Source of the DNA: Candidatus Hydrogenedentota bacterium
Lineage (GTDB): Bacteria > Hydrogenedentota > Hydrogenedentia > Hydrogenedentales > CAILVY01
Direction of reading: 5' to 3'
Length of the DNA stretch: 64,000 nt
Assembly: GCA_029565395.1 (NCBI GenBank)
Contig: JAKQOG010000048.1
Span: 206-64,205 of the forward strand
Part shown: one piece after another, positions 247 to 31,482 of the stretch
Position numbering within the stretch: the first letter of the stretch is position 1
Layout of the letters: the number at the start of each line of letters is the position of its first letter
Program-made: the position numbers and the translations under genes
The notes under the pieces: generated by a model
What the model was told of the DNA's origin: nothing
Databases searched by the model: none
What the model saw: the letters and a program-made list of their open reading frames with translations, nothing else

Positions 247-3200
247 ATGAGTAAAATAGAGGTTAAGCAGAGGATGACGTGGTGGGTTTTGGGATTGGTA
301 ATGTGTTCCGTTATGGCCTGTGCCGCCAATGGGGAAATGGCGGCCGGCGCTTCGAAAACGCCGGTTGAAAATCCCGCCATTTTGGTATATGTGGGCCTAT
401 GCACCGGCGGGCAGGACTATGCCAACGAAGCCCTTGCCAACCTTGGCTATGCCAATGTCACCACGGTCACCACTTTGGCTGATTTTCAAACACAGTTGGC
501 CTTCTCGTGGAATCTGATTATTTATGACGGATACTACTCCTTTCTGAATACCACCATCCTCGATATGCTCAAAACAAAGTATGATTCAGGCGGCCGCATC
601 ATTTTTTCCGATGCGAATGTTCTTGCGCTGAAGGCGCATTCGTTGTTTTCCGCCGCCGGTGTCTCCATTATCAACGAATTCACCGTTCCGGAACCCCTTT
701 ACCCCTGGCAAAACGATCCCCTGTTCATTACCCCCAACGAAGTGCCGCCCATCACGGTCCTGAGCGATTTGTGCAACCGTGACGGCGTGCATCTGGAACC
801 TGTTGCCGGGCTGTCTACCGCACACGCTGGCGCCACCGAAACGGCCGAAACCAACAAGGCCCTGTTAACCGTGGATGCGAAACGCCATTTTATCTTTAAT
901 GGATTCGCTCCACAAACCGTCACGGGCGATCAGGATAGCGACAGCAAGCCTGACATGGTTGAATTATATGAAAATGAAATTCATCACTTGCTTGCGGGCG
1001 GCAACGGCGCGCTGGTCTTTTTTTCAACGTGTAACGGCGGCTTGGACTACTTTTCGGATGCATTGGATATGGCTGGCTTGAGCAACCGCACCGTTGTGTA
1101 TAATCAAGATGATTTTCTTGATCAATTGAATACGGGCAACTGGCGGTTGGTGATTGTGGATGCCTACGACATGAGCATAGACTCCACAGCGCTGGATGCA
1201 TTGGTCCGTCATTACAATAGCGGCGGGAAGACAATCCTGTATACGTGGAATCTGTTGAGTCTTGCTGCACATCCCTTCTTTACTCTCGCCGGCGCCAATC
1301 CCCTGTCCAACTATTCCACCCCGCAACCCATCTATGACTGGGATGTCTCGAATCTTTTCAAACAGCCGTGGACCATTCCTGATCTCACTGCGCTGAGCGA
1401 CCTGTGCCCTATCGATGGCCAGTATCTTCAAGCTACCACGGGCATTGCGCTCGCCGGCAACACCCCAACGTATGACGCCACTAAAGCCACCATTGTCATG
1501 GATGCCCACCGCCGGATATTGCTGAACGGATTCGCTCCCCAGAATGTTACCAGTAACCTTACGGGGTACAACGACATGACGGCCCTGTATGAAAACGAGA
1601 TCAACCTGTTGCTCTGGGGTGGACGCGGCACCCTGGTGTATATCGAGGCATGCGGGGGAAGCCCGGACTATATCTCCCCCGCCCTGGCCAATCTTGGTAT
1701 TACGGACGTTACTAGAGCCTCCGATGCGCTTGATTTCACCCTCCAACTTGCATCGGGCACCTGGGATACGGTCATTTATGAGGCCTACCGCATCGACACC
1801 ACCACGGAAACTCTGGACGCATTGCTGAACTTTTTTGATAAGAACCAGGGAAGTCTCGTCATCTCTCTATTTGACCTGAAAGCATTTGCCAGTCATCCTC
1901 TCTTTTCGGACCGTGCCGGGATCACCGTGGGTAGCGAGTACGGCGATCCACAGCCCATCTATGCCTGGAATCAATCCATCCTGTTTCAGGCGCCCAATGA
2001 GGTCCCTACTCTCAGCGCTTTCTCGAACCCCTGCGCGACGGACGGACAATTTATGGAAGTGACCACCGCCACCGCCCATGCGGGTTATACGGCAGATCCT
2101 TCAGCGAACAACACCGCCATTGCCGTTAACCAGAGCAAGCGGCTGATCGTCAATGGATTTATCCCAGGAATTGTGACAGGAGACGCCGATGGGGACTTAA
2201 AAGACGACATGGTTGAGCTCTACGAAAATGAAATTCTCTATAGCCGGGCAGGAACCAAGGTGGGGACCCTAGTGCTTTTCAACGATTGTTTTTTCGGACA
2301 AAATTATGTGGAACCGGCAGCCGCTAATCTTGGGTTGTCGAGAACGATCATAAGCAACGAAACATGGTTTCGAACCTATCTTGCCGCAGGGGATTGGGGT
2401 ACGGTCATTTATGATTCCTACAGCGCTTTCTTTCCGAATGGCCTTGAACAGGATCTGACGGCATATTACGATCAGGGTGGACGCATCATCCTGTCCGCGT
2501 GGGACCTTACCTCTTATGGAGGATACCCCATTTTGGACCGAGCAGGCATTTCGGTGGGATCCCAGTATAACACCCCTGAGCCTATCTATGCCTGGGACGT
2601 ATCGCCATTTTTCGATACCCCCAACCTAATCCCTAATCTGACCATTTTCAGTGATTTATGCGATGTTGACGGCCAGTATCTGCAACCCGGTACGGCATCC
2701 GCGGTCGCCGGCTTCACCGCTTCCCCTCAGGCAGACACCGCCGCCATTACCATGGACGCCCAATCCCGTTTTATCGTGAACGGTTTCATGCCCCAGAATG
2801 TTACCGGCGATGAAGACGGCGATACCAAGCTGGATATGGTTGAACTGTATGAAAATGAACTTAATGCCGTGCAGATGGCAACAGCAGAACGTTCCTGCCC
2901 CGCGGAATCCTTCTTCTCGCAAATACCGTATGCTCCCCCTGAAGCAATGGGTGCATGGTTTAGCGATGTGGATCTCCCCTATACGGTGTATGAAAACTTT
3001 AATGGCCTTACGGATCCCATCGGACAGATCGTGTGGTGGGGGCTCAATTGTTATTGTGACGCCATACCCGCGACGGACACCTTTTCTGTTGGATTTTACG
3101 AGGACAATGCGGGACTGCCCGGGAACCTGATTTACGAAGAAACCGTGACCCCCATACGGGAAAAGGTTGATGTGATGTATTATGTCTGGTGGCTATATCA

Positions 3201-3684
3201 ATATACCGTCACTTTAGCGGCGCCCCAATCAATCGACTCCGGCTGGCTCAAGATACGCGTTATAAATAGCAGCAAGTGCACGTGGGGATGGATGAGCAGC
3301 GGCCAGGGCGATCATTTCGCCTACCAGGAGGGTAGCGGACCCTTGAATAATCTGGATTTCGGCGTCTGTTTCATTGGCGCCAGTGCAAGCGGTATCCACA
3401 GCGCCGACACCAACAGCGATTATATCATCGGCCTCTCGGAACTTCTCCGCGTTATCCAGTTTTTCAACTCCAATGGATTCCATTGCCAGGCTGGCACCGA
3501 AGACGGTTTCGCGCCGGGTCCCGGCGATACAAGCTGTGCTCCCTATGACAGCGACTATAACCCAACCGATTGGCAGATAAGCCTTTCGGAATTGCTCCGG
3601 GTGATCCAGTTCTTCAATTCCGGCGGATATCATTACTGCCCCGGCGATGGTACGGAAGACGGGTATTGCCCCGGTCAAGGCTGA
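247..3684 (+). CDS. Giant secreted repeat protein 1 (1145 aa): signal peptide, 4 tandem ~210-aa repeats, one WWG/FYEDNAG-type domain, C-terminal dockerin/EF-hand-like Cys module
   Basis: RBS GGGAGAGG lies before the ATG. The N-terminus MSKIEVKQRMTWWVLGLVMCSVMACAANG is signal-like. Four repeats start near aa 54, 264, 470 and 684 (GGxDY...ALANLGY...DMVELYENE). The last ~90 aa are DTNSDYIIGLSELLRVIQFFNS...GTEDGYCPGQG. Confidence 0.85.
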   Translation: MSKIEVKQRMTWWVLGLVMCSVMACAANGEMAAGASKTPVENPAILVYVGLCTGGQDYANEALANLGYANVTTVTTLADFQTQLAFSWNLIIYDGYYSFLNTTILDMLKTKYDSGGRIIFSDANVLALKAHSLFSAAGVSIINEFTVPEPLYPWQNDPLFITPNEVPPITVLSDLCNRDGVHLEPVAGLSTAHAGATETAETNKALLTVDAKRHFIFNGFAPQTVTGDQDSDSKPDMVELYENEIHHLLAGGNGALVFFSTCNGGLDYFSDALDMAGLSNRTVVYNQDDFLDQLNTGNWRLVIVDAYDMSIDSTALDALVRHYNSGGKTILYTWNLLSLAAHPFFTLAGANPLSNYSTPQPIYDWDVSNLFKQPWTIPDLTALSDLCPIDGQYLQATTGIALAGNTPTYDATKATIVMDAHRRILLNGFAPQNVTSNLTGYNDMTALYENEINLLLWGGRGTLVYIEACGGSPDYISPALANLGITDVTRASDALDFTLQLASGTWDTVIYEAYRIDTTTETLDALLNFFDKNQGSLVISLFDLKAFASHPLFSDRAGITVGSEYGDPQPIYAWNQSILFQAPNEVPTLSAFSNPCATDGQFMEVTTATAHAGYTADPSANNTAIAVNQSKRLIVNGFIPGIVTGDADGDLKDDMVELYENEILYSRAGTKVGTLVLFNDCFFGQNYVEPAAANLGLSRTIISNETWFRTYLAAGDWGTVIYDSYSAFFPNGLEQDLTAYYDQGGRIILSAWDLTSYGGYPILDRAGISVGSQYNTPEPIYAWDVSPFFDTPNLIPNLTIFSDLCDVDGQYLQPGTASAVAGFTASPQADTAAITMDAQSRFIVNGFMPQNVTGDEDGDTKLDMVELYENELNAVQMATAERSCPAESFFSQIPYAPPEAMGAWFSDVDLPYTVYENFNGLTDPIGQIVWWGLNCYCDAIPATDTFSVGFYEDNAGLPGNLIYEETVTPIREKVDVMYYVWWLYQYTVTLAAPQSIDSGWLKIRVINSSKCTWGWMSSGQGDHFAYQEGSGPLNNLDFGVCFIGASASGIHSADTNSDYIIGLSELLRVIQFFNSNGFHCQAGTEDGFAPGPGDTSCAPYDSDYNPTDWQISLSELLRVIQFFNSGGYHYCPGDGTEDGYCPGQG

Positions 3685-3819: not shown

Positions 3820-3881
3820 TATGATTAAGTATAGGTGTGAAAAGAAACGTAGAGGGAACCCAACCTGAAGGAGGGAGCATC

Positions 3882-6800
3882 ATGCTGTATATAAGACGCA
3901 CGGGACATTTTCCACATCAATCAACGTTAATCGCACGGGTTCTGTTAGGAATAGCTCTTATTCCCATTCTAGGCGGTCAAGCACCCGCACAAATCAACGC
4001 TCTTGCGCTTAAAGATGATGCGCGAACAAAAGTTACCCTGTGCACGGTAACGATCAATTTCGATGATGTATCTGCGCCCACGTTATTCATGAATGCAACG
4101 CATCTTACGGACGCATACAGTCAAATGTATGGAGTAACGTTTTATGGCCCAGACGGGGATAACGGCGGCGCCATTTTAGATAGCAGCACTTGGGCGTCGG
4201 TCACAGGCGAAAGCACCCCGAATTTTCTAGCCTTTGACACCCTGGGAGATCTTTCGGATGGCGGTGTAGCCATAGGGCCAGAAACGATTGAATTCCGAAG
4301 TCCCGTGGATGGTGTCAGCGTAAATGTGGCTACGGGGACGGGAGGCCATGCCACCCTCGAAGCCCGTGACCCGTATGGAACGGTTCTGGACAGTCAAACC
4401 GTATCATTGGGTTTCGCGATGCAAACGGTCACGATTATGTCGCCAGGAATTAAGTCATTAGTAGCGTCCTTTGACGACTCGACATTTCTAATGGATGATC
4501 TGTGCATTTACGGCGATCCTAACGGTGAGTCCTGTGCTGATGATTCGTTCTTTAGTCAAAAACCTATGAGTCCGTGGGAATCATGGAATGGATTTCCAAG
4601 CAATGTTGGGGGGAATAGTCTCTTGTATGAGAATTTCTCCGGATTGACCGAACCAATACAACGTATTCGTTGGTGGGGATTTGGAGTTGCCCCCGGCTTT
4701 TTCAACTGCACGCCCACGGGGAGTTCGTTTGAAATTGGGTTGTATTATGATGACGGGGGCGCGCCCGGAGCTCAATGTTACTCAGAGACCGTGACGGCGG
4801 CAATGTACGAGACGGGCCGGATATTTGCAGGAGTAGATAACTTTACGGAATACAGGTTCGAGGCAGACCTTGCAAATCCGTCCTACTTTTCCAATGGCTG
4901 GATTATGATTAAAGGCCTGGGAGATTTCTCCACATGCGGTTTTTATTGGCTGTTATCGCCAGAGGGCGATAACGTTTCCTCGCTGTCCACGGATGAAGGG
5001 GCCACCTTTAGCCCACAGACGATGAATTTCTCTATTTGCCTGAGCCCCGGCCCTGGCTACCGGCAGGAATGTGGAACGGGTTCTGCCTTTTCACAACGGC
5101 CCTTTGTTCCAAATTCTGTTTCTGAGTTTGGAAATTATTTCTTCAGCAGCGAAGCGCTGGGCTACACTGCCTATGAGAATTTTTCAGGGCTTAGCTGGCC
5201 TGCCAAGCACATTACCTGGTGGGGCATTGACTACTCCACTTCCTATAGTCCTTGTTCACGCACGATGGGTGATTTTACCATTTCCGTATACAACGACAAT
5301 GCCGGCGCTCCGGGTTCACTGGCGCTTGAGGAAACACTCACGCCTGTCCGCATGGATACAGGCAGGCAATGGTTCGACGGGACAAATTATTATCCTGAAT
5401 ACCGCTATGAAGCTGAATTGACCGGGCAGATTGACCTGGCGGATGGGTGGATTTCGATTTTTGGCAGCAATGAAGATGGGACATGCGGTTTTGCCTGGGC
5501 TGTCTCGCCGGTGGGGGACGATCTGATTTACCAAGCAATGAATGGTGAAACTCCCGCCAGTAAGCCAGGTTTTGACTTGAGCATTTGCCTGGACACCTAT
5601 ACGGGACCGCCACAGTATTGCATGGATGGTTCGCAGTTTAATCAAAAGCCCTATGGTCCTCTGGACCCTGGAGTCAACGCATGGTATAGCGGAGACGAGA
5701 CCGGATATATTGTGTATGACAATTTTTCCTCGCACTGGCCAATAAATTCCCTTCAATGGTGGGGAGCGGCCAGCGGACCGGCTTGCACCTCGTTTCAAAT
5801 TACATTTTATGAGGATAATGCCGGGCAACCAGGGATTGTGACATATCAGGAGAATGTGGTGGCGACACAAGAGCCAACGACTCGTTTATTTTTTGGAGGG
5901 CCTGAGTACAGGTTCTTCGCCACGCTTAGTTCTTCGGTAGCATTGGCCAGCGGCTGGATCTCCATCGCGGGGATAAACGGAGCCGGGTGTGGCTTTGGAT
6001 GGATTTGCTCTCCGAATGGGGATGACATTTCATTTAGTCAAACCCCGCCTGGCAGCGGTCCCTTCGTTAACCTCAACGTGGATCTGGCGTTGTGTCTGGG
6101 CGCGGATACGGGACCTGCGGAAACGTGCTCACCGTATGCACTGTTCGGCCAGCCGAGCATGGACCCCACTGCCTTGGGAGTGAACGCTCTCTTCAGCGAC
6201 GAAATATTGACCTATGCCGCCTATGAGAATTTTTCGGGAATCACGGATTCGATTACCGATGTCCGCTGGTGGGGCGTTCATTTCAATTACGCACCTTGTA
6301 CGCGCGTGACAGATACGTACCAAATAACATTTTATGAGGATAATGCAGGGCAACCGGGCGCTGTAGTGGAACAGGCGGTGATTACGCCGGACCGGACATT
6401 GACAGGCCGGATATTCTATTTTTCGGCGGACTATCCGGAATATTTGTGCCATGTGCGGCTAAGTACACCGGTGTCCCTTGCCACGGGCTGGATCTCCATT
6501 GTGGGCGTAGGGGATGCATCGTGTGGATTTGCATGGATGTGTTCAAGCGTGGGCGATTCTTTCTGCCTTCAATACCCCATCGCCGGCGGATCCCCCTTGA
6601 CTGGATACAGTGATCTCAGTCTATGTCTAAGCCATGAAGAAGAATTGTGCCAAGTCGTCCTCGATGGATCACAAGAAGCGCCACCCATTGGCAGCGCTGC
6701 CACTGGTATGGCAACATTTGCACACGTTGGCCCAGATGCAGTGCAGTTGACAGTAGTCCATGATGTGGCAGATCCTACCGCTGCACATATACACAGTGGC

Positions 6801-7457
6801 GTGCCTGGAGTAAATGGTCCGGCCGTCTTTGATCTGGGAATGCCAACCAGCCCCATAGAAGTGACGATGACATTGGCGGAATACACCTTGTTCTCTACTG
6901 ATCATTATGTAAATGTTCATAGTCTCATGTATCCGGCCGGAGAAATCCGAGGCGATATTCTCTGTCTTCCGGCCGAAGGCGAAGGCGCGGAGGAAGGTGA
7001 AGGTGCAGTGGAAGGCGAAGGCGCGGAGGAAGGCGAAGGCGCGGAGGAAGGTGAAGGTGCAGTGGAAGGCGAGGGTGCAGTGGAAGGCGAGGGTGCAGTG
7101 GAAGGCGAAGGCGCGGAGGAAGGCGAAGGCGCGGAGGAAGGCGAAGGTGCAGTGGAAGGCGAAGATGGATTCCTGACGGCGGATCAGGATCAAGACAATG
7201 CGATCAGCCTTTCCGAACTGCTCCGCGTTATCCAGTTTTTCAACTCCAATGGATTCCATTGCCAGGCCGGCACCGAAGATGGCTATGCCCCCGGTCCTGG
7301 CGATACGAGCTGTGCGCCCTACGACAGCGACTATAACCCAATCGATTGGCAGATAAGCCTTTCGGAATTGCTCCGGGTGATCCAGTTCTTCAATTCCGGC
7401 GGATACCACTACTGTCCCGGCGATGGCACGGAAGACGGGTATTGCCCCGGCCTATAA
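3882..7457 (+). CDS. Giant secreted repeat protein 2 (~1191 aa): signal peptide, 4 tandem ~170-aa WWG/FYEDNAG repeats, CHRD domain, EG-repeat linker, C-terminal dockerin/EF-hand-like Cys module
   Basis: The start is moved to the ATG at 3882, which has a strong GGAGGGAG RBS; the ORF track starts at 3837. The N-terminus MLYIRRTGHFPHQSTLIARVLLGIALIPILGG is signal-like. A CHRD-like segment reads LDGSQEAPPIGSAATGMATF...AAHIHSGVPGVNGPAVFDL...VNVHSLMYPAGEIRGDI. The C-terminus closely matches that of ORF 1 and ends ...GTEDGYCPGL. Confidence 0.85.
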   Translation: MLYIRRTGHFPHQSTLIARVLLGIALIPILGGQAPAQINALALKDDARTKVTLCTVTINFDDVSAPTLFMNATHLTDAYSQMYGVTFYGPDGDNGGAILDSSTWASVTGESTPNFLAFDTLGDLSDGGVAIGPETIEFRSPVDGVSVNVATGTGGHATLEARDPYGTVLDSQTVSLGFAMQTVTIMSPGIKSLVASFDDSTFLMDDLCIYGDPNGESCADDSFFSQKPMSPWESWNGFPSNVGGNSLLYENFSGLTEPIQRIRWWGFGVAPGFFNCTPTGSSFEIGLYYDDGGAPGAQCYSETVTAAMYETGRIFAGVDNFTEYRFEADLANPSYFSNGWIMIKGLGDFSTCGFYWLLSPEGDNVSSLSTDEGATFSPQTMNFSICLSPGPGYRQECGTGSAFSQRPFVPNSVSEFGNYFFSSEALGYTAYENFSGLSWPAKHITWWGIDYSTSYSPCSRTMGDFTISVYNDNAGAPGSLALEETLTPVRMDTGRQWFDGTNYYPEYRYEAELTGQIDLADGWISIFGSNEDGTCGFAWAVSPVGDDLIYQAMNGETPASKPGFDLSICLDTYTGPPQYCMDGSQFNQKPYGPLDPGVNAWYSGDETGYIVYDNFSSHWPINSLQWWGAASGPACTSFQITFYEDNAGQPGIVTYQENVVATQEPTTRLFFGGPEYRFFATLSSSVALASGWISIAGINGAGCGFGWICSPNGDDISFSQTPPGSGPFVNLNVDLALCLGADTGPAETCSPYALFGQPSMDPTALGVNALFSDEILTYAAYENFSGITDSITDVRWWGVHFNYAPCTRVTDTYQITFYEDNAGQPGAVVEQAVITPDRTLTGRIFYFSADYPEYLCHVRLSTPVSLATGWISIVGVGDASCGFAWMCSSVGDSFCLQYPIAGGSPLTGYSDLSLCLSHEEELCQVVLDGSQEAPPIGSAATGMATFAHVGPDAVQLTVVHDVADPTAAHIHSGVPGVNGPAVFDLGMPTSPIEVTMTLAEYTLFSTDHYVNVHSLMYPAGEIRGDILCLPAEGEGAEEGEGAVEGEGAEEGEGAEEGEGAVEGEGAVEGEGAVEGEGAEEGEGAEEGEGAVEGEDGFLTADQDQDNAISLSELLRVIQFFNSNGFHCQAGTEDGYAPGPGDTSCAPYDSDYNPIDWQISLSELLRVIQFFNSGGYHYCPGDGTEDGYCPGL
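6975..7165 (+). repeat. Perfect tandem 18/36-bp DNA repeats encoding an (EGEGA[EV])n acidic linker inside giant ORF 2
   Basis: Units gaaggcgaaggcgcggag and gaaggtgaaggtgcagtg are repeated about 10 times. They translate to EGEGAEEGEGAVEGEGA... Confidence 0.9.
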
Positions 7458-7723: not shown

Positions 7724-10700
7724 ATGCGCAAGCAGCTCTGTATCGCGGCGATTATCGGAGGGTGGATTGTTTTTTTCGTATATAACCCCAATGCATCCGC
7801 GGGGTCCAATCCGCCTGTGTATGTAAGCCATAACAACGCCTCCGGCAATGAAGATGGTGCAAGTTGGGCCACAGCGTTCACCACGATCCAGCCGGCGTTG
7901 GATAATGCCGCAGCGGCAGGCGGCGGCGAGGTATGGGTGGCCAAGGGAAGCTATGGTGAAATCCGGGACAATACCGGCGCGCTGGGTTCGCTGGTTCTGT
8001 GGAGTGATGTGGGTGTGTTTGGCGGATTCGATGGGACGGAAGCAACTATTGAAGAACGCGATCCGAATACCAACCTCACCATCATTGATGGTTCCGCATC
8101 GCGCTTGGAAGGCCAGGAACTGGCCCCGGCCTATCATGTAGTCCGCGGGGAATACCTGAGCGATGTTGTGTTGGATGGTTTCATTATTGGGGGTGGAATG
8201 AATCCCTATCAGACGGTTGCCGATCCCGGTGGCGGGGGAATCTATCTATCAGGGGCGGATGCGACTGTGGTGCTAGAGCATTTGACGCTGAATTTTAACA
8301 GCGCTAATTTAGGTGGAGCCATTTATTTGAACAATGCTTCTCCAATAATACGCAATTGCAGGATTGTGGGGAATGGCGCGTTTGATGGGGGTGGATTGTA
8401 TCTGGTTAATTCTTCGCCCCGTATAGAAAATGTACTGGCCATGAATAATCTGGCCCCGCCGCTGTTTGATAATTCAGGACTTGGTGGAGATGTATATGCT
8501 GATGCTGAATCGTCGCCCCTTATGGTAAATGTGACCCTGGCAGGATCTATAGCGAAGGAAGGTGCGATCTATAGCGCAATGCGGGACAATACCGGGCCAG
8601 TTCTGGTGAATGCGGCGATAAGTTACACCAGTGATATGGAACATGATGTTATTCATGAGGATGTGGCGGGCGATATCCAGGCTACCTATACCCTCGCCCA
8701 GAAGCAGTTGCCGGGAGAGGGGAACCAATCCGGACGCGAGTTGTTCCGAATAAGCGATTATTCCGTTTTTACGGACGATCCGGTCTACGACACAGCCACC
8801 GGCCATACTACTTTTTTTGATCGATCCAAACATTTCGCGCCGAATTCTTTGGTGGGTACGCTGTTGCGGGTGGATACGTATGGAATTCCTTGGTATTACG
8901 TCTACACCTTTGTCATTTTGGAAAACACGGAAACAAGCATCACCGTGTTTAGGGATACGGATATGGCCATCACGGCGGGGACGCATTACGCCCTGCTCGA
9001 TGGCAGCATGGAGAAGATTTCGCCCACGGTGGACACGGGCGCGTCCAACGGAACTCCTTCACACGATTATCTCGGTCAAGCGCGGGGGTATGATGGCGAC
9101 GGTTTGGGGCATGTTACCGGGGATGGGTCGGACTATGACTTGGGCTTCTTAGAATACACCGGACAGGTGTGGGGCGTGGCGCCAATTGCGGATCAAAAAC
9201 TCGAAACGGCCGTGTTGCACGTGTTGCCCAGCGTGGAACCGCCCATTCATACCGATGAGTTTCTGACAGTGACGGAATTAGACGCTTCCTCCCAAAACAT
9301 CACCAATATTTGGGGAATCGAGTACGGCGTAAATCTGGAAACATTGAATCTTAGCAATAATGCCATTTCGCGGCTGGGTGCACTTGCGGGAGCGCACAAA
9401 TTACATTGGCTCGATTTGCACCATAATCAAATCACGGAAATTAGTGCGCTGCTAGCGAACACCGGACTGGGTGGCGATGATTTCCTCGACCTGCGTGGCA
9501 ATCCGCTAACGGAAGAGACTGTGTGCGCGGATCTTCCTGTGCTCCAGGCACGGTTTAACGATCCGCGTAATCTCCTCTATGACCAGTGGTGTGGGCCACA
9601 GGCGCGGCTGACTATGACGGTAATAGGTATTGGCACGGTTAGCCCGGAACCTGGCATTACGGTATATCATCCCGCCGAATATGCACACCTCTCCGCCACT
9701 CCGATTGCGGGAAGTGGATATGCCTTTGATCACTGGGAAGGCAGTGTTTCCTCGGACAGCCCGGCGGTTGATCTGATTATGTATTCGGATAAGAATATTG
9801 CGGCGGTGTTTGTAAATCAAGGCGTGGAAACGCATACCCTCACCCTGCTAAAAGTGGGAGACGGCCAGGGTGATCTATCGCCGGGCGAAGGCGTATTCAC
9901 TTATGTCGAAGGACACTCCGTGGATATTAATGCCGTACCTGTTTCCGGCGATGTCTTTGGCGGATGGAGCGGCGATTTTGTCAGCATGAACACCAGCGGA
10001 ACGATCGTAATGGATGCCGACAAGGTAATCACCGCAACGTTTTTGCACACCTATGTAACACTCGATATAGCGATCACGGGCAATGGCTCCACCAATCCCG
10101 CCCCCGGCACGTATTATTATGCGCCTGGCGCTCAAGCCACGCTTGAGGCCTTGGTTACCGACCCAGTGTGGCATTTTGATCATTGGGAAGGCGGCGTGGA
10201 CACCCCCACAAACCTGCACACCACGATCACCCTCACCCAATCGGCCTCTATAACGGCCGTGTTTGTTCAGTATGAACGCGTGCTGGAAATCCGCGCTTAC
10301 GGTAATGGAACCACTATCCCCGCGCCCGGCCTGCATGGATATAATCCCGGGGATGCCGTGCAAATCCAAGCCATTCCTGGCGGAGGCGCTGCTTTCTCCG
10401 GATGGATGGGGGATCTGCAAGGTCAGGAGACTCCCGCCTCTGTTACCATGGAGGCAGACCGGTTAGTACTCGCCTTCTTTACTAATACCGACACCTCGTC
10501 TTTGTTCCATTCTGTTGATACTAATCATGACTGGCATATTTCCTACTCAGAAATGTCCAGGATTTTCCAGTTCTTCAATATGGGAGGAGATTACCATTGT
10601 GAAGCCGGTACTGAAGATGGATATTTTCCCGGTATTGGCAGCCATGATTGTGCCCCGCACGATGCCGATTATGATCCTCAAGACTGGCGTATTTCCTTGT

Positions 10701-13700
10701 CGGAACTGCTGCGGATGCTGCAATTCTTTTATGCCCCCGACAGCGCTTACCATGTGAATACCAATTCCCCCGACGGTTTTGCGTCTGGACCTCCGGCAAC
10801 CCCAAAAGTCAGCAGAGAAATCTTGTCTCCTGCATGCCAGCCCGGACAAACCGTAGATGTTCGTGTAACCCTCGATTGGTCAGAACGGCCCGTTCCTCCT
10901 GTATCCGCTATCGAAATACACGAAGTTATCCCTGATGGATACACATTTGTTCAAATACTCAATGCTCCTTCCGGGTACTTTATACAAGCACCGGCGATGG
11001 GCAGTTCCGGGGCCATCACGATCAACTGGTATTCCGCGGCGGCACCTGAGGCGCCAAACCTTCCTGTAAATCTTGATTACCGGCTGCAAGCGCCGCCGGA
11101 TCAGATTGGTATCGTGCATCTGCATGGCAGCAGTACATTTGCGATCGATGATTTCAATGTAACCTCGCAGGACACGGACTCTTTTACGAGTGCCTTGCAC
11201 GTGGATCAGCGGAATACCTCCGGAGTGGAAAACGGACTATGCTGGGAAACGGCATTCACCACGATTCAGCCTGCCATTGATCGGGCAACAAATTTCGGCG
11301 GCGGAGATATATGGGTGGCCAAGGGGACGTATAGTGAAGTCCGCGGCAATACAGCCTCTCTTGGTTCGCTAGTGCTTCTGAGCGGGGTAAACCTCTACGG
11401 TGGTTTCTCTGGCGTGGAAACCAGGTTGGACGAACGGGATAGCGAGAAAAATCTTACGATAATAGACGGACACGCCTCCAGGCTCTCCGGGTCAACTGCA
11501 TACCCCGCCTATCACGGGGTGTTTGGGGAAAACCTGACCAACGCGACATTGGACGGATTTGTGATCGCTGGAGGAACAGGGGGTGATTCAGGAACAAATA
11601 CCTATGGCGGGGGCATTTATCTGGCCGCGTCAGATAGTACGGTCTTGTTGAATTATCTAACCATTTGCAATAACATCGCGCCTTATGGCGGGGGCATATG
11701 CGTGGATGGCGTGTCTCCCCGTATTCAAAATTGCCGGATTATCAATAATACGGGTAGCTCTTCTGGCGGGGGAATATTCATTAAAACGGGTGAACCCACC
11801 TTCGAGAATCTCTTGCTGCTCAATAACAGAGGCGGTAATGCCGGGGCGGTAGATATTTACGCCAACGATTTCCCAACCTTTCACAATGTCACCATCGCCG
11901 ACAACTGGTCCTCCGTTGCTACCGTGTACGATTCGGGAGGAAGCACAGGACGTCCATCACTGGTGAATGCCGTGTGGGATCTAAACCACAATTCATCTGC
12001 TTCCAGCAATGTTGACGTAAATGGAAGTGTCGGCGTGCAGTATTCTCTGGCTCCGCGTGTCATCAGCGGTGATGAGAACCTTACCGGGCATGCCCTGTTT
12101 CGCGTGTTGAGTCATTCCGTCTTTACAGCCACTCCATCGTTTGATACAGAGACATACCGCACTACATTCTTCGACGACACCCAATCATTCATTCCCGGCG
12201 CGTTGGCAGGGGGTATTGTCCAAACATACGACAGAAAGACTACCGAGCATGGCAATTACTTCGTCATCTTGGACAACACGGAAACCGCCTTCTCCGTATT
12301 TGGAGATCAAACAGGATACGGATGGACTGGCGATTGGTATTGTTTCCTTGATGGGAGCATGGAGAAGAACTCTCCCGCAGTTGATACCGGAAGTTCTTGG
12401 GTGGGCATGCCCGCAACAGATTACCTCGGCCAGCCGCGCGGATATGACGGCGATGGGCTGGGCTGGGTTGACTTTGGGCTTCGAGACTTTGACATGGGCT
12501 TTCTGGAATACACCGGCCAGCCTTGGGGCGAGGCCTTCTTCCCGGATCAGCAATTGACTTCGGCCGTTTTCAACGCATTGCCGGGCGTTGAGCACACGGA
12601 TGAGTTGCTGGCCCTGACAACACTGAATGCACCTTCCCAAGGTATTGCCGATTTGTCAGGCATCGAACATTGCATGAATCTTCAAACTCTGGATCTCAGC
12701 AACAATCCCATCAGCGACATAGAAATGCTGTCCGCGCTGACCTCCATCGCGTATCTGGATCTTCATGACAACCGGGTCACAACAATAGACGCCCTGCTTG
12801 CCAATACGGGCATCGGCGGCGATGACGTGGTGGACCTTCGCGGCAATCCTTTAACGCAGGATGCGGTCTGCAACGGCATTCCAGCCCTTCAGGCGCGTTT
12901 CAATAACCCGGACAACGTACTCTACGATCAATGGTGCGGACCGCAGGCGCGGCTTACCCTCCAGATCGTCGGTGTAGGTTCGGTAACCCCGAATGCGGGA
13001 ACCACCGTGTACCATCCTGGGGATCATGTGCGTGTGTATGCCGAGCCCATTGATGGCAGCGGATATGCATTTAAGGAATGGAGAGGGAGCTTTTTTACCA
13101 GCAATCATGTTCTCGACTTTGCGATAACCTCGGACATAACCCTCACCGCCTATTTTGTGAATTCCGGGTATCAATTTCACATCCTCCATATAGAGCGCGC
13201 AGGAAACGGCGAAGGGACCATTCTGCCAGGCGAGGGTTCTTTCACGTATATCGCCGGCCGCAACGCCCCCATCAGCGCCACCCCTCAAAATGGCAGCGGC
13301 TTTGGCGGGTGGACTGGCGATCTGAACAGCTTGCGTTTAAACGAGAATGTGGCTATGAACGCCGACAAGGCAATTACCGCAACGTTCATGCAAGGAGGCA
13401 TACCGCTCACGCTAAGTGTCTCCGGACGCGGCGAGATTAATCTCCCCACGGGAACGTTCTATTACGCCCCAGGCATTACTATTCCGCTTGTTGCGCATGA
13501 AACAGATACGCTCTGGTACTTTGATCGTTGGGAAGGCGCCATAAATTCTCCCGATCAGCAAATTGAATTCGTGCTGACGGAACCTGCCGCCATAACCGCT
13601 GTTTTCCGGCTCTATGAGCGCAGGCTTCGAATTCTGGCCTATGGCCGCCATGGAACAACGGATCCCTTGCCTGGTTTGCATGGGTACCATCAAGATGAAC

Positions 13701-15382
13701 AGGCTCAGATTTATGCATACCCAGAGTATTTTTTTTCCGGGTGGATGGGGGATCGCCATGGACGCGATAATCCTCTCTACATGGCCATGGATATAGACCA
13801 TCTGGTGATCGCATCCTTCGCCCGTACGAATGGTTTGTATCATTCAGCGGATGTGAACCATGACTGGTACATTGATTTAGAAGAACTTATGCGCGTGATT
13901 CAGTTGTTTAATTCCGGCGGGTATCATTGCCAGGAAGGGACCGAAGACGGATATGCTCCGGGTCCAGGGGACGTGGGTTGCGGGCCACACGACGCTGATG
14001 AGAATTGGGACGGGATAATAGGGCTGTCTGAAATGTTGAGAGTGGTTCAGTTTTATAATTCCGAGGGTTATCATATCGCGTTCGGCACCGAAGACGGTTT
14101 TGCCCCCGCCTTTTTGGGCGATGCCGGTCTGCTTGTCATCAGACGCGAAGCCGATCCACCGGTCTATGTTCCCGGACAGGGGGTAGATATCCACCTGTCG
14201 ATCAGTCCAGCCAATGGGCGCATCTATGACATGTTTGCGATTCAAATCAGGGAAGATCTTCCTCTGGGATGGAGTTATGTCGAATCCTCGTCCACGCCGG
14301 AAGGATTTTTCAGCACTATGCTGGCGCCAGGCGCCACGGGAAGCATTGATTTTGGCTGGTATTCAATCGATAATGCCACAATGCCTGACTTGCCGGTTGA
14401 ACTCACCTACCGGTTGCAGGTTCCCATGGATCAGACCGGCAGGATGACTATTTCAGGTTCCTGTATATCGGTATTCGATAACGACCATGTGTATACCTTG
14501 GGCATAGACCCAATCTATTTGGACCCGGCTGCCGAAGGAGAAGGCACTATCGAAGGAGAAGGGGTTATCGAGGGCATGCCCTTTGAAGGTTCCCCGGAAG
14601 AAGGGGAAGGTCTGATTGAAGGCGAAGGCGTTGCCGAAGGTGAAGGCGAAGGCGGCGCTGAAGGTGAAGGGGAGGAAGGCGAAGATGTCGTCGAAGGCGA
14701 AGGCTCTATCGAGGGCGAAGGCGAATTGCCGGTTTCCGTGCATAGCGCCGACAGCAATGGCGATGGCATGATCAGTCTGAGCGAATTTCTACGGGTACTG
14801 CAGTTCTATAATTCCGGCGGATATCGTTGTCAGCCGGGCACCGAGGATGGCTACGCGTCGCACCTAGGCGATACATCCTGTGTGCCTCACAGTTCCGATT
14901 ACCACCCGCAGGATTGGCAGATTGATCTGTCCGAACTGCTCCGGATGGTGCAGCTCTATAACGCCGGCGCTTATCATGCCTGCACAGATTCCGAAGACGG
15001 ATTCTGTCCGGGACCTGTAGAAACCGAAGGCGCCTGCGAAGGCTCGATCGAAGGTTCCACTGCTGAAGGCGAAGAAGGCGAGGGTGAATTTGCCGCCCAG
15101 ACGGCCGATCAGGATGGCGATGGCGTAATCAGCCTCTCCGAAGTGCTGCGGATGATCCAGTTTTTCAATGCTGGCGGGTTCCATTGTGAATCGGGTACTG
15201 AAGACGGATATGCCGCGGGGCCGGGGGATACTGATTGCGCATTGCATACCAGCGACTACCACCCGCAAGACTGGCGCATCAGCCTTTCCGAACTCCTCCG
15301 TACGTTCCAGTTTTACAATGCCGGTTGGTATCGCTATTGCCCCGGCGAGGGCACTGAAGACGGCTATTGTCCGGGAATATAG
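7724..15382 (+). CDS. Giant secreted protein 3 (2552 aa): a ~1150-aa super-unit duplicated in tandem (parallel beta-helix, LRR, 4 InlB-B-like repeats, dockerin-like module, Ig-like domain), then EG linker and two more dockerin-like modules
   Basis: RBS GAGGAG. The signal peptide is MRKQLCIAAIIGGWIVFFVYNPNASA. Beta-helix heads GASWATAFTTIQPALDNAAAAGGGEVWVAKGSY (aa ~45) and GLCWETAFTTIQPAIDRATNFGGGDIWVAKGTY (aa ~1170) mark the two units. LRR motifs read LETLNLSNNAISRLG..LHWLDLHHNQITEI. The InlB-B-like repeats have the form PGxTVYHPGxxVxLxAxPxxGxxFxxWxG. Dockerin-like modules lie near aa 930, 2040, 2340 and at the C-terminus, which ends GTEDGYCPGI. Confidence 0.85.
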   Translation: MRKQLCIAAIIGGWIVFFVYNPNASAGSNPPVYVSHNNASGNEDGASWATAFTTIQPALDNAAAAGGGEVWVAKGSYGEIRDNTGALGSLVLWSDVGVFGGFDGTEATIEERDPNTNLTIIDGSASRLEGQELAPAYHVVRGEYLSDVVLDGFIIGGGMNPYQTVADPGGGGIYLSGADATVVLEHLTLNFNSANLGGAIYLNNASPIIRNCRIVGNGAFDGGGLYLVNSSPRIENVLAMNNLAPPLFDNSGLGGDVYADAESSPLMVNVTLAGSIAKEGAIYSAMRDNTGPVLVNAAISYTSDMEHDVIHEDVAGDIQATYTLAQKQLPGEGNQSGRELFRISDYSVFTDDPVYDTATGHTTFFDRSKHFAPNSLVGTLLRVDTYGIPWYYVYTFVILENTETSITVFRDTDMAITAGTHYALLDGSMEKISPTVDTGASNGTPSHDYLGQARGYDGDGLGHVTGDGSDYDLGFLEYTGQVWGVAPIADQKLETAVLHVLPSVEPPIHTDEFLTVTELDASSQNITNIWGIEYGVNLETLNLSNNAISRLGALAGAHKLHWLDLHHNQITEISALLANTGLGGDDFLDLRGNPLTEETVCADLPVLQARFNDPRNLLYDQWCGPQARLTMTVIGIGTVSPEPGITVYHPAEYAHLSATPIAGSGYAFDHWEGSVSSDSPAVDLIMYSDKNIAAVFVNQGVETHTLTLLKVGDGQGDLSPGEGVFTYVEGHSVDINAVPVSGDVFGGWSGDFVSMNTSGTIVMDADKVITATFLHTYVTLDIAITGNGSTNPAPGTYYYAPGAQATLEALVTDPVWHFDHWEGGVDTPTNLHTTITLTQSASITAVFVQYERVLEIRAYGNGTTIPAPGLHGYNPGDAVQIQAIPGGGAAFSGWMGDLQGQETPASVTMEADRLVLAFFTNTDTSSLFHSVDTNHDWHISYSEMSRIFQFFNMGGDYHCEAGTEDGYFPGIGSHDCAPHDADYDPQDWRISLSELLRMLQFFYAPDSAYHVNTNSPDGFASGPPATPKVSREILSPACQPGQTVDVRVTLDWSERPVPPVSAIEIHEVIPDGYTFVQILNAPSGYFIQAPAMGSSGAITINWYSAAAPEAPNLPVNLDYRLQAPPDQIGIVHLHGSSTFAIDDFNVTSQDTDSFTSALHVDQRNTSGVENGLCWETAFTTIQPAIDRATNFGGGDIWVAKGTYSEVRGNTASLGSLVLLSGVNLYGGFSGVETRLDERDSEKNLTIIDGHASRLSGSTAYPAYHGVFGENLTNATLDGFVIAGGTGGDSGTNTYGGGIYLAASDSTVLLNYLTICNNIAPYGGGICVDGVSPRIQNCRIINNTGSSSGGGIFIKTGEPTFENLLLLNNRGGNAGAVDIYANDFPTFHNVTIADNWSSVATVYDSGGSTGRPSLVNAVWDLNHNSSASSNVDVNGSVGVQYSLAPRVISGDENLTGHALFRVLSHSVFTATPSFDTETYRTTFFDDTQSFIPGALAGGIVQTYDRKTTEHGNYFVILDNTETAFSVFGDQTGYGWTGDWYCFLDGSMEKNSPAVDTGSSWVGMPATDYLGQPRGYDGDGLGWVDFGLRDFDMGFLEYTGQPWGEAFFPDQQLTSAVFNALPGVEHTDELLALTTLNAPSQGIADLSGIEHCMNLQTLDLSNNPISDIEMLSALTSIAYLDLHDNRVTTIDALLANTGIGGDDVVDLRGNPLTQDAVCNGIPALQARFNNPDNVLYDQWCGPQARLTLQIVGVGSVTPNAGTTVYHPGDHVRVYAEPIDGSGYAFKEWRGSFFTSNHVLDFAITSDITLTAYFVNSGYQFHILHIERAGNGEGTILPGEGSFTYIAGRNAPISATPQNGSGFGGWTGDLNSLRLNENVAMNADKAITATFMQGGIPLTLSVSGRGEINLPTGTFYYAPGITIPLVAHETDTLWYFDRWEGAINSPDQQIEFVLTEPAAITAVFRLYERRLRILAYGRHGTTDPLPGLHGYHQDEQAQIYAYPEYFFSGWMGDRHGRDNPLYMAMDIDHLVIASFARTNGLYHSADVNHDWYIDLEELMRVIQLFNSGGYHCQEGTEDGYAPGPGDVGCGPHDADENWDGIIGLSEMLRVVQFYNSEGYHIAFGTEDGFAPAFLGDAGLLVIRREADPPVYVPGQGVDIHLSISPANGRIYDMFAIQIREDLPLGWSYVESSSTPEGFFSTMLAPGATGSIDFGWYSIDNATMPDLPVELTYRLQVPMDQTGRMTISGSCISVFDNDHVYTLGIDPIYLDPAAEGEGTIEGEGVIEGMPFEGSPEEGEGLIEGEGVAEGEGEGGAEGEGEEGEDVVEGEGSIEGEGELPVSVHSADSNGDGMISLSEFLRVLQFYNSGGYRCQPGTEDGYASHLGDTSCVPHSSDYHPQDWQIDLSELLRMVQLYNAGAYHACTDSEDGFCPGPVETEGACEGSIEGSTAEGEEGEGEFAAQTADQDGDGVISLSEVLRMIQFFNAGGFHCESGTEDGYAAGPGDTDCALHTSDYHPQDWRISLSELLRTFQFYNAGWYRYCPGEGTEDGYCPGI

Positions 15383-23843: not shown

Positions 23844-26800
23844 TCAAAGCCCCGGGCAGAATCCGTCTTCGGTGCCTTCGCCGGGGCAGTAGTGATACCC
23901 GCCGGAATTGAAGAACTGGATCACGCGCAGCAATTCGGACAAGCTGATGTGCCAGTCTTGGGCATTGTAATCGCTATCATATGGCGCACAACTTGTATCG
24001 CCCGGACCGGGCGCGTAGCCGTCTTCCGTGCCCGCTTCACAATGGAATCCGTCTGAATTGAAGAATTGGATTACACGGAGCAGTTCCGAAAGGTTGATAA
24101 AACCATCCTGGTCTTGATCGGGCGTCAGATATCCGTCTTCGCCTTCTCCTTCCTCGCCACCTTCTTCTCCCCCTTCGCCTTCAGCAATACCCTCTTCTCC
24201 TCCTTCACCCTCTGGGGCGCCTTCGCCTTCTTCCACGCCTTCGGCCTGACCCTCCTCCGGCGAACCTTCGGAGGGCACGCCTTCAGTTTCTCCTTCTTCC
24301 ACGGCCCCTTCTCCTTCCTCTCCGCCTGGAACAGGGTATGGCGCACTGAAGACGGATGTGTTGCCGTCACTGGCCGTAGCCGTGGCGGTGATGTTCATTC
24401 CGGCATAGGGTGTTATGTCCACATCTAAATGGAAATTTCCGGAGCCATCCGACGAAGCCGCGCCGAGAAAAATGCGGCCTTCATCCTCATCATCCGCGAA
24501 TGCTTCAATCGTGGCCAATGCAATGCTTGTGCCGTCGATGGAACCCAATGCAGTAATGACCGGGGCCGGAACATTGTTATTGGCGCCTGGGAGCAATTCT
24601 ATGCCCAAGCCGCCATTTGAATAGATGGAGTTGCCCGAAATACGAACATACAAAACAGTTTCCTCGAGATACACGCCTGCGGCATAATTAAAAGCAATCG
24701 TATTGCCTTCTCCGGGGGTGGTTCCACCGATTGTATTGTCCTCGGCATGCCAACCCGCTTGCACACCCCAACTCTGCGGATTCCCGGAGGGCGCGCCGGT
24801 TCCCAGGGCATTCGGTCCAATCCAATTGCCCTGTACCTTATTCCCTGTTACATTCGCTCCCATTAGCCGGACACCACAACTCCCGTTGCCGGAGATTAGG
24901 TTCCGCCACCAGGAAAGTCCGCCGCCGATGAGATTGTTGGTGGCTTCTTCAACAATCGACACTCCTGCAAGCTCGTTGGCGATCGCCATCATGCCACTGG
25001 CATCCGTGCCGATATAATTGCCTTGCACGGCGCAATCATGCCCATCCACTCCGGAGATCCGAATGCCGTAAAAGCACCCGGAGATAATATTGCGGTAGCC
25101 TATGTTTTCCCCGCCGATCTGGGTTTGCGGCGCCATTACGTCAATCCCCGTGGCATACTGCACGGCCAAGGCGGACGCTCCATCTTTGTCCAAGCCAATA
25201 TAATTCCCGTAAATCATGTTGCCCATGCCGGCGGCGCCATCGATCAGAATTTCACCTCCGCCGGCATTGCCTGCAATGATATTGCCGCTTGTCTCCGATT
25301 CCCCGCCGATCACGTTACCCGGAGAACCATTAATCCAGACGCCATAATACCCATTGCCCATCGCCGCCATGCCCGTGGCGTCCACCCCAATGTAGTTTCC
25401 TAAAATTTCCGTGGCGGTGGCGGAGGAACCAACATGGACCCCCGCTGAGCTGTTGCCGGAAATAATATTGCCACTGAGTCCGTCTCCCCCGCCGATGATA
25501 GTGCCTGAACCATCGGCCACATATATGCCCACGGCGTTTGGCATGCTGGAGGTTCCATCGGTGCCGAGCGTGCATTCCGCGACCGTGTTATTGTTGCCGC
25601 TGATGTTCACACCCGCATAGGGGAAATTCACAATCCCAAGGCCACGCACTTCATTTCCGTCCGAGAGCAGCACAAGACCGTTGTCCGAACCGGAGAGGCC
25701 CGACCCATCTAGAACTATTTGGCCGGCCCCATTAATAACCGTAGGGGCTGAGCTGTCATTCAGCGCCGGGAGCGCCGAACTGAGCGTTATCGTGACGGTT
25801 TTCGACAGATCGAAGACGATTGTGTTTTCGCCGGTCATGGCATTAGCCTGCTCTATGGCCGCTCGAAGCGTATGCGGGCCGCTGTCGCCGGAGTCCGTCA
25901 CGGTGATTGTGGCATCAAAAAAGATGGCCGCGGGCGCGCTGAAGGCGGACGTGCAACCGGTGGTGGTGTCCGTGGCCAGGGCGGTGACATTCAGTCCGTT
26001 ATAGGGCAATAAATCCACATCCACATGAAAATCGCCGGTGTCTTCGGCTATGGCCGTCCCGATAAACAAGCGCCCTTCGTCTGCTTCATCAACGAAGACA
26101 TCCACCAGCGCATAGGGGGGCGCGGTTCCATCCACCGAACCGAGCGTGGTGATAACCGGCGCGGCGATATCGCCGTTGGTTCCGGGATCAAGCACAATGC
26201 CCTCTTCCGTATTGTCATGTATGGAATTGCGGAGAATGCTGATCCCGGTGCTTCCATCGCGAACCCATACGCCTTTGCTTCCATTGAACGCAATGATGTT
26301 GGCGGCGCCGTCTTCCGCGCCGCCGATAACATTCTGACTTGCGTGGTCGGTCAAATACACGCCTATGGAACCATTGGGCAACGGATTACTTCCCGAAACA
26401 TCGCACCCGATTTTGTTCCCCTTTACCACATTGTTGGCCGTATCCGTGGTGAAGATGATAATTCCAAAATTACTGTTGCCGGAAATCAGATTTCCCGCAC
26501 CTGCGGCAGTGCCGCCAATCATGCACATTTGGGCGCCTGATTCCACCGCCACCCCTGACCGGTTTGGAACCGATAGCATGCCGCTGATGTCCGTGCCGAT
26601 ATAATTCCCTTGAAGGAAATTGCTGGAGGAAACAAGATCAATGCCTTCTTCCGAATTGCCTGATATCAGATTCCCATGCCCCGCCACCCCGTCGCCAATG
26701 TGATTGCCGCTGGACCCTGAGTCCACCACGATCCCGTTTTGCCCGTTGGCTAGCGAGGCTGTCCCTTCCCGGTTTGTGCCGATGCGGTTTCCGAAAACGC

Positions 26801-28493: not shown

Positions 28494-28668
28494 GAAATTG
28501 ATCCTTTCGTTCCCACGCATTAACCCTTGGGATACTCCTCTGCGATGTGATTTTTCTTCCCTGCCCGCCAGATAAACCGCCCTTCCGGCGGACAGGCAGT
28601 TATTGAACTCATAATACTCCATCTTTTCCCCAAAGCGAAATATTTTCTTGCGGCAGAAGAGAGTGTTT

Positions 28669-31341: not shown

Positions 31342-31482
31342 GACCAAACCCTCCATGAGTACCTGTAAATGATATTACTGCGAATTTATATTGAAATCAA
31401 GGGCTTTTTCAGAGAGAAATTGAATGTGCCCTGTGTAGTGGAGTAGTTTGGATGCCTTGACAACAATAGAAGGAGCGGAGCC

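Follow-up and report, generated by a model that had tools for sequence, protein, structure and literature searches.

What kind of domain is repeated four times in tandem in a secreted protein of a Candidatus Hydrogenedentota bacterium, and what might it do there? The question is raised by a stretch of 64,000 nucleotides of contig JAKQOG010000048.1 (assembly GCA_029565395.1, positions 206 to 64,205 of the forward strand), here called the window, in which one open reading frame (ORF), ORF2, encodes the tandem array and two further ORFs encode a single copy each. An initial annotation, made from the DNA letters without database searches, had described the domain as unrecognised and as possibly a new binding module. 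We find that the domain is neither unique nor wholly unknown, but is a new, Cys-bearing sister of a catalogued domain family, DUF7901 (Pfam PF25470). Judging from the sequences of the proteins that carry it, its setting is extracytoplasmic. On balance, we favour the view that it is an autonomous, disulfide-stabilised, surface-displayed binding module, where binding is read from fold class and context.

All six copies of the domain, each of about 165-183 residues, could be confirmed: a tandem array of four in ORF2 and single copies in ORF1 and in an ORF on the minus strand (28669-31356), the third carrier. Measured Cys to Cys, i.e., starting at the leading Cys of a copy and running up to that of the following one, the ORF2 copies on the plus strand are R1 at 4533-5069 (residues 233-411), R2 at 5070-5618 (residues 412-594), R3 at 5619-6125 (residues 595-763; delimited by hidden Markov model [HMM] and alignment) and R4 at 6126-6647 (residues 764-937). 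The copy in ORF1 lies at 2896-3390 of the plus strand (residues 884-1048), and that of the third carrier lies at 29410-29940 of the minus strand (residues 473-649), after Ig-like domains. R1 was detected at E 3.8e-78 with a self-inclusive model and at E 6.4e-52 with the family model; for the ORF1 copy, the values were 1.3e-72 and 6.4e-48. An HMM built from the five copies of ORF1 and ORF2 independently recovered the sixth copy at E 6e-38, a match far beyond chance, and the six-copy domain is thus real. The same HMM found no further copy beyond the six in the six-frame translation of the window. The initial annotation had located every copy correctly, the one in its "ORF 5" (residues ~470-640) being that of the minus-strand ORF. 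It had let the array end at 6560; R4 runs about 90 nucleotides past this point, and the array extends to about 6647.

According to the alignment, identity among the six copies is about 35-40%, and the four ORF2 copies are mutually 38-42% identical. The residues C1, F7, Q9, P14, S26, F38, W50-W51-G52, Y74, G79, P81-G82, L117, G126-W127, I130, C139, W143, S146, G149-D150, G159 and C173 are invariant in all six. The leading Cys and the W-W-G motif had been proposed to be invariant, and both are. Other motifs had been drawn too narrowly: FYEDNAGxPG also occurs as VYNDNAGAPG, LYYDDGGAPG and FYENDSGAPG, and EYR[FY]EA is exact in R1 and R2 only, R3 having EYRFFA and the other three copies lacking the motif. 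The Cys and the Trp of the proposed CGF-W motif are indeed invariant, but its wording fails for ORF1 (CTWGW) and for the third carrier (CRFHW).

The size of the family became apparent only through an exhaustive HMMER profile search of 1.84 billion representatives of clusters at 50% identity, a word-indexed homologue search being nearly blind to it (6 and 5 matches). The exhaustive search, which the initial annotation had suggested for metagenomic proteins, returned 2769 clusters when the limit was set at E<=1e-3, of which 1361 also passed E<=1e-10 and 329 passed E<=1e-30. Of the 154 best proteins, 91 contain one copy of the domain, 52 contain two, 6 contain three and 5 contain four. A scan of species-representative genomes placed the domain in metagenome-assembled genomes (MAGs) labelled Candidatus Hydrogenedentes/Hydrogenedentota, Zixibacteria, Phycisphaerales and Bacteroidales, and also in two archaeal MAGs (Methanobacteriota and Thermoplasmata). 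The closest orthologues of ORF2 sit in two MAGs labelled "uncultured Nitrospirales", a label that is probably wrong. The four-copy array is kept in ORF2 orthologues at three loci (L005, L006 and L007). Compared position by position, orthologous copies are 58-75% identical at L005 and 45-58% identical at L007, against 34-48% for paralogous copies. Each copy has its nearest counterpart at its own position in the orthologues; the array is therefore old, and each position has been kept separately.

We then compared the domain with known families. Pfam and NCBIfam were both scanned with the carriers, the isolated copies, two consensus sequences and ten members of the family, and for the domain only sub-threshold matches to DUF7901 and choice-of-anchor R were obtained. 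In Pfam, neither ORF1 nor any isolated copy gave a match at the cut-off. For DUF7901, whose cut-off is 24 bits, the scores were as follows: whole ORF2 reached 18.1 bits (best stretch residues 803-841, in R4), the family consensus 14 bits and the homologue P0008 20.7 bits, and the best E value of an isolated window copy was 0.032. At least 59 of the 63 family proteins scanned were without a DUF7901 match at E<=1e-3. Where proteins were checked one by one, no above-cut-off DUF7901 match covered the new domain. True DUF7901 copies do adjoin the new domain, as separate regions, in the proteins P0064, P0075, P0079, P0098, P0126 and P0151. NCBIfam gave no match for the window proteins at E<=1, and PDB sequence-profile searches with profiles of 6 and of 38 sequences gave nothing below E 0.07. 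The earlier statement that the domain could be assigned to no known adhesin or carbohydrate-binding module (CBM) family therefore agrees with the Pfam, NCBIfam and PDB sequence-profile searches, which returned nothing at threshold.

Profile-profile comparison pointed to a distant kinship. With hhalign, the six window copies matched an alignment of seven true DUF7901 copies with 93.9% probability (E 1.6e-7, 140 columns), and the family alignment of 217 domains matched DUF7901 with 95.4% probability (E 1.9e-8). A bridge between the two families is provided by P0158, a small PEP-CTERM protein that scores 31.7 bits for DUF7901, above the cut-off, and that is also hit by the family profile, with E 3.4e-10 for a database of 5.8 billion (5.8e9) sequences. 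Moreover, a jackhmmer search started from a true DUF7901 copy draws in the new family within four rounds. As a control, two beta-sandwich families that co-occur with the domain, P_proprotein (PF01483) and GBD_T9SS_assoc (PF23759), were aligned in the same way, using copies from the same protein set; with an hhalign probability of 0.1% each, kinship with them was rejected. We take the DUF7901 link to be real because of this difference in hhalign probability and because of the P0158 bridge. By sequence comparison, the new domain is thus a remote homologue of DUF7901.

The two families share an order of motifs, namely ADDF/YENF ([YA][ED][ND]F), I..[IV].WWG, F.I.[FI]Y.D..G.PG and Y.Y, followed by a hydrophobic residue with W-[IL]-S-I, an aromatic residue with G-W, and DL..[FC]L. 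Both are extracytoplasmic, occur with varied C-terminal anchors and are found together in the same proteins. They differ in detail at some of these motifs: GW[IV]SI in the new family corresponds to YWLSI in DUF7901, C.F.W..S..GD to FGWK...NDDAV, and DL..CL (DLSLCL) to DLAFEL. The DUF7901 signatures KWSQPP, ADD[FW].C and NDDAV are missing from the new family, which has C-P..S.FSQ.P and YENFSG instead. The new domain has about 175 residues, compared to 205 positions in the Pfam model of DUF7901, and its four conserved Cys residues are absent from the DUF7901 copies and from P0158. Because length, signature motifs and Cys pattern differ, we file the domain as a sister family without a database model of its own, rather than as a member of DUF7901. 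A weak local similarity over WWG...FY.D..G.PG links it to choice-of-anchor R (NF041539), which is likewise a single domain found with varied C-terminal sorting signals. In this comparison, made by HMM score alone, the family consensus reached 13.2 bits and P0158 reached 18.8 bits, below the cut-off of 30.

The description of the domain as unrecognised thus holds insofar as no characterised family was found, although DUF7901 is a remote homologue. No significant match to a characterised family emerged, because DUF7901 has no known function. As DUF7901 is itself uncharacterised, the kinship yields no mechanism. A literature search on DUF7901, on choice-of-anchor domains and on Hydrogenedentes together with dockerins found nothing about the domain.

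The Cys residues distinguish the new family and bear on its stability. Four are conserved, at C1, C62, C139 and C173. The last lies in "LS[LI]CL" and is invariant in the window copies, and C62 is present in five of the six window copies and in 97% family-wide, the second Cys being displaced in ORF1 (LNCYCD). In the 217 aligned domains, Cys frequencies at the HMM positions 1, 61, 133 and 167 are 86%, 97%, 96% and 100%, the shortfall at position 1 being mostly due to truncation of the alignment. Positions 61 and 133 vary together: Cys is found at both in 208 domains, at neither in 6, and only 3 domains are discordant. Three domains, two in P0087 and one in P0110, have exactly two Cys residues, at positions 1 and 167. 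Two optional extra Cys pairs, 43-115 and 85-116, also appear and vanish together. These patterns of co-loss favour pairing of the first with the fourth Cys (1-167) and of the second with the third (61-133), and the two predicted disulfides would probably stabilise the domain. The initial annotation had proposed a disulfide between the first Cys and that of the CGF motif. Disulfides are likely, as it had suggested; this particular pairing is not supported, and there are four Cys residues, not two. Gain and loss of Cys in pairs, combined with export signals on the carriers, is the mark of a disulfide-stabilised extracytoplasmic domain, the bonds being predicted ones.

The structure of copy R2 was modelled with AlphaFold2. 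With 10 sequences, the predicted local distance difference test score (pLDDT) was 84.7; with 38 diverse family sequences, the pLDDT increased to 91.9, with a predicted template modelling score of 0.88. The latter model consists of beta structure throughout: it has 12 strands and lacks any helix of at least four residues, and its predicted fold is a jelly-roll-like beta-sandwich, as found in many binding modules. Using Foldseek, neither R2 model had a match in the PDB at E<=1e-3. The best PDB match was a baseplate protein of phage phi812 (9eui_Q/9euj_G), with a template modelling (TM) score of 0.45-0.48. Lower matches were CBM6, CBM3, a GH87 domain, the MAM-like domain of InhA2, Eph ligand-binding domains, TNF-family proteins and viral capsid jelly rolls. 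In the BFVD set of predicted viral structures, two matches were found at E<=1e-3, with TM scores up to 0.54; the named BFVD matches include phage tail-fibre and collagen-like proteins, and many are unnamed. The Foldseek and AlphaFold analyses advised by the initial annotation thus give a confident all-beta model and no close match among solved structures.

CBM6, CBM3, Eph and MAM or InhA MAM-like domains are likewise beta-sandwiches of ~130-180 residues that are extracellular, modular and often in tandem, and the MAM domain also resembles the new domain in having about 170 residues and four conserved Cys residues. However, all of these matches had E>1e-2 and TM scores of 0.17-0.36 (CBM6 1gmm, 0.31; CBM3 1nbc, 0.29; MAM 5l73, 0.17; EphA4, 0.35), with no sequence-profile match, and the likeness is confined to fold class. 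Residues known to bind sugars or metals in the CBM, Eph or MAM domains could not be mapped onto the new domain. Identity with MAM was rejected, as no MAM match was found by Pfam in the domain region and the Foldseek TM score was 0.17. Phage baseplate and tail-fibre jelly-roll domains usually mediate host binding. They are the best structural matches of the new domain but, with 9-16% identity, a root mean square deviation of 7-9 Å and no sequence homology, are too weak for a transfer of function.

The setting of the domain is seen in its carriers. All three carriers of the window start with signal-peptide-like N termini and end in an acidic linker followed by two 'ISLSELLRVIQFFNS' repeats with weak EF-hand matches. 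ORF2 (3837-7457, plus strand) consists of a signal peptide, an N-terminal domain, the four copies, a CHRD domain at 6651-6959 (plus strand, residues 939-1041; Pfam PF07452, E 2e-16, 61.3 bits against a cut-off of 24.1), an acidic EGEGA-type linker and, as seen in its sequence, two EF-hand/dockerin-like repeats (linker and repeats, 6972-7454, plus strand). This linker and its 'ISLSELLRVIQFFNS' repeats are presumed to be a surface anchor. The true start of ORF2 is likely the ATG 15 codons in, at MLYIRR. ORF1 (247-3684, plus strand) has a signal peptide, four repeats of ~215 residues, its single domain copy and the anchor pair common to ORF2 (linker and two motif copies, 3440-3681). The third carrier (28669-31356, minus strand) has a signal peptide, Ig-like domains (Ig_3/I-set matches in Pfam, upstream of the domain copy), the domain copy, a long acidic linker and the anchor pair (28672-29100, minus strand); its residues 6-895 are identical to the database protein P0046. 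Pfam matches to EF-hands were weak in ORF2 and in the third carrier and stronger in the C-terminal region of the neighbouring ORF3.

The C-terminal motif, D..D..ISLSELLRVIQFFNS.G[FY]H.C...TEDG[YF]CPG, is common to five ORFs of the window. Each domain carrier has two copies, and one copy each is found in the C-terminal part of ORF3 and in a beta-helix protein (23844-28622, minus strand). The motif also occurs in 24 of the 154 family representatives and at the loci L005, L006 and L009. The motif has the look of a dockerin-like surface anchor used throughout the lineage.

Within the family as a whole, C-terminal ends are interchangeable. Sorted by regular expressions, with the remainder unclassified or truncated, the ends of the 154 proteins were of the SELLRxIQ type in 24, of a dockerin/EF-hand type in 18, a tail resembling those of the type IX secretion system (T9SS) in 10, and a hydrophobic-plus-basic tail like that of PEP-CTERM or IPTL-CTERM proteins in 13. 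This is "choice-of-anchor" behaviour, typical of surface-displayed modules. In small homologues of 238-266 residues, a single domain stands between a signal peptide and a sorting-like tail, with nothing else present; because such single-domain proteins exist, the domain works on its own.

Taken together, the favoured interpretation of the domain as a binding module would work as follows. The carriers would be exported by Sec signal peptides and, in this bacterium, held at the cell surface by the C-terminal pair of EF-hand/dockerin-like repeats. A disulfide between the first and last Cys residues would clamp the N and C termini of the domain, and a second would join the Cys near position 62 to that of the "CGF" motif. 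Judging from its fold class and context, the domain probably binds something outside the cell, acting as an adhesin- or lectin-like ligand-binding module, and the four divergent, position-conserved copies of ORF2 may give multivalent or multispecific binding. The initial suggestion of a new binding module agrees with the secreted surface carriers and with the jelly-roll-like model; binding itself we infer, and the family has turned out to be neither rare nor wholly unrecognised. The caution of the initial annotation was justified. A bolder proposal, which we regard as doubtful, is that the domain founds a new lectin- or CBM-like family in bacteria and archaea with a fold new to the PDB, that the four ORF2 variants have different ligands, and that the carriers, along with numerous further surface proteins of this uncultivated phylum, are displayed in a cellulosome-like manner on lineage-specific, Ca-dependent, dockerin-like anchors (paired SLSELLRVIQFFNS repeats).

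Several observations weigh against a binding role. Binding by the domain is drawn from fold class and context only; the structural matches are weak (best TM score 0.48 in the PDB and 0.54 in the viral set) and give no lead to a particular ligand. Many of the conserved residues (WWG, F.I.FY, GW.SI and C.F.W) resemble a core rather than a binding site, and in surface proteins, beta-sandwiches arrayed in tandem often serve as simple stalks. The Cys pairing, in turn, derives from co-variation and not from Cys-Cys distances in the model.

The main rival is thus a passive stalk or spacer, i.e., a rigid beta-sandwich bead that holds the N-terminal domains, the CHRD domain and the Ig domains off the surface, like Ig-like, cadherin-like or Big repeats. 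We consider this less probable than not, but serious. Tandem copies are joined by very short linkers, gaps of 0-10 residues being common, conservation falls mostly on apparent core residues, and no structural match suggests a ligand site, all of which would suit a bead. However, the small homologues, which add only a signal peptide and a membrane tail to a single domain, have nothing to space, and the first copy begins no more than 120 residues from the N terminus in 58 of the 154 proteins. Furthermore, the ORF2 copies are only 38-42% identical, yet each is conserved by position in the orthologues, which is unexpected for interchangeable beads, and the conserved polar residues (Q9, S26-D27, D76 and S146..G149-D150) are mainly located at the ends of predicted strands or outside them. 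These counterpoints do not settle the matter against a spacer.

Improbable, in our judgement, is a role in self-association or in binding of the cell's own exopolysaccharide (EPS) matrix, leading to aggregation and to floc or biofilm formation, instead of attachment to prey or to a substrate outside the organism. Small PEP-CTERM proteins, P0158 among them, contain the sister family DUF7901, and P0158 weakly matches the NCBIfam model of PepA, a PEP-CTERM protein associated with flocculation (20.6 bits, cut-off 80). Two reports describe PEP-CTERM proteins as required for floc formation in activated-sludge bacteria (PMC9850573, PMC9012009). However, the PepA match is far under threshold and lies largely in the shared PEP-CTERM tail, no window copy matches PepA, and no exosortase or EPS locus was seen adjoining the genes in the window. 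Such a role, which has been proposed for some PEP-CTERM proteins, is a variant that we cannot separate here from ligand binding.

It is quite improbable that the domain is a plain member of DUF7901 or choice-of-anchor R that scores low through divergence and holds nothing new. The repeated sub-threshold matches to both, the hhalign probability of ~95% and the recruitment by jackhmmer would fit this reading. Against it, all window copies stay below the 24 bits required by Pfam and the 30 bits required by NCBIfam, most family proteins scanned lack a DUF7901 match at E<=1e-3, and in P0079, P0075, P0098 and P0151 the two types are neighbouring but distinct domains; the four-Cys signature and the shorter length argue in the same direction. 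Finally, an enzyme, e.g., a hydrolase acting on a surface polymer, is hardly credible: a few conserved polar residues exist (Q9, S26, D76, S146, D150 and D169), but searches of Pfam, NCBIfam and the PDB matched no catalytic family, the jelly rolls that resemble the domain in fold are non-catalytic, and divergent tandem arrays are atypical of catalytic domains.

A family of this size marks an annotation gap, as Pfam and NCBIfam overlook about 1400 or more clusters (50% identity, E<=1e-10) of bacterial and archaeal proteins that are secreted or located at the surface. With a family model, placed in one clan with DUF7901 and probably with choice-of-anchor R, a module that recurs in the surface proteome of uncultivated phyla, including Hydrogenedentota, Zixibacteria and Planctomycetota, could be annotated. 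The domain is also a tractable target, with a confident model and poor PDB matches: a single domain of ~175 residues with two predicted disulfides, or a natural single-domain protein of ~250 residues, would be practical for structure determination and ligand screening. This is a domain-discovery result, which overturns no concept and introduces no new principle.

Some features of the homologues were observed in addition. The single-domain homologues P0001 to P0006, P0061, P0063 and P0119 (loci L001 to L004), from a Bacteroidota-like context, share a C-terminal pattern of [VI]P[LVI][AS][PN]WA followed by a hydrophobic helix and R[YF]RR, which by its sequence looks like a C-terminal sorting signal; P0001 had no match in NCBIfam. 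The genes near P0003 (peptidases, HAD, Dus, Rce1-like and a T9SS cargo protein) gave no functional clue. A Cys-rich domain of ~110 residues that resembles PPC/GBD_T9SS_assoc co-occurs in 58 of the 154 family proteins, with 136 copies.

Within the carriers, residues ~60-232 of ORF2 (window 4010-4530) form a beta-rich N-terminal region before the repeats, without family assignment. The four ~215-residue repeats of ORF1 (residues ~40-880, window 247-2890) constitute a second repeat domain, with the motifs LVY..C.GG.DY, W..VIYD.Y, Y..GG..I.S, P.PIY.W, SD.C..DG and NGF.P..VTGD.D.D...DMVELYENE; they had no match in Pfam or NCBIfam.

The region is a cluster of surface-protein genes, in which the neighbours are also very large secreted proteins. 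ORF3 (7724-15382, plus strand) encodes 2552 residues with leucine-rich repeats, divergent InlB B-repeats and EF-hands, and the NosD/beta-helix protein at 23844-28622 (minus strand) has 1592 residues. A DUF4838/GH20b-like protein is encoded at 31483-33984. Further along lies a topoisomerase I gene (36007-38430), by which the window is placed in Candidatus Hydrogenedentota: its named relatives, 55-77% identical, nearly all bear the name of that phylum, with one labelled "FCB group bacterium". The same contig is present in two public metagenomes.

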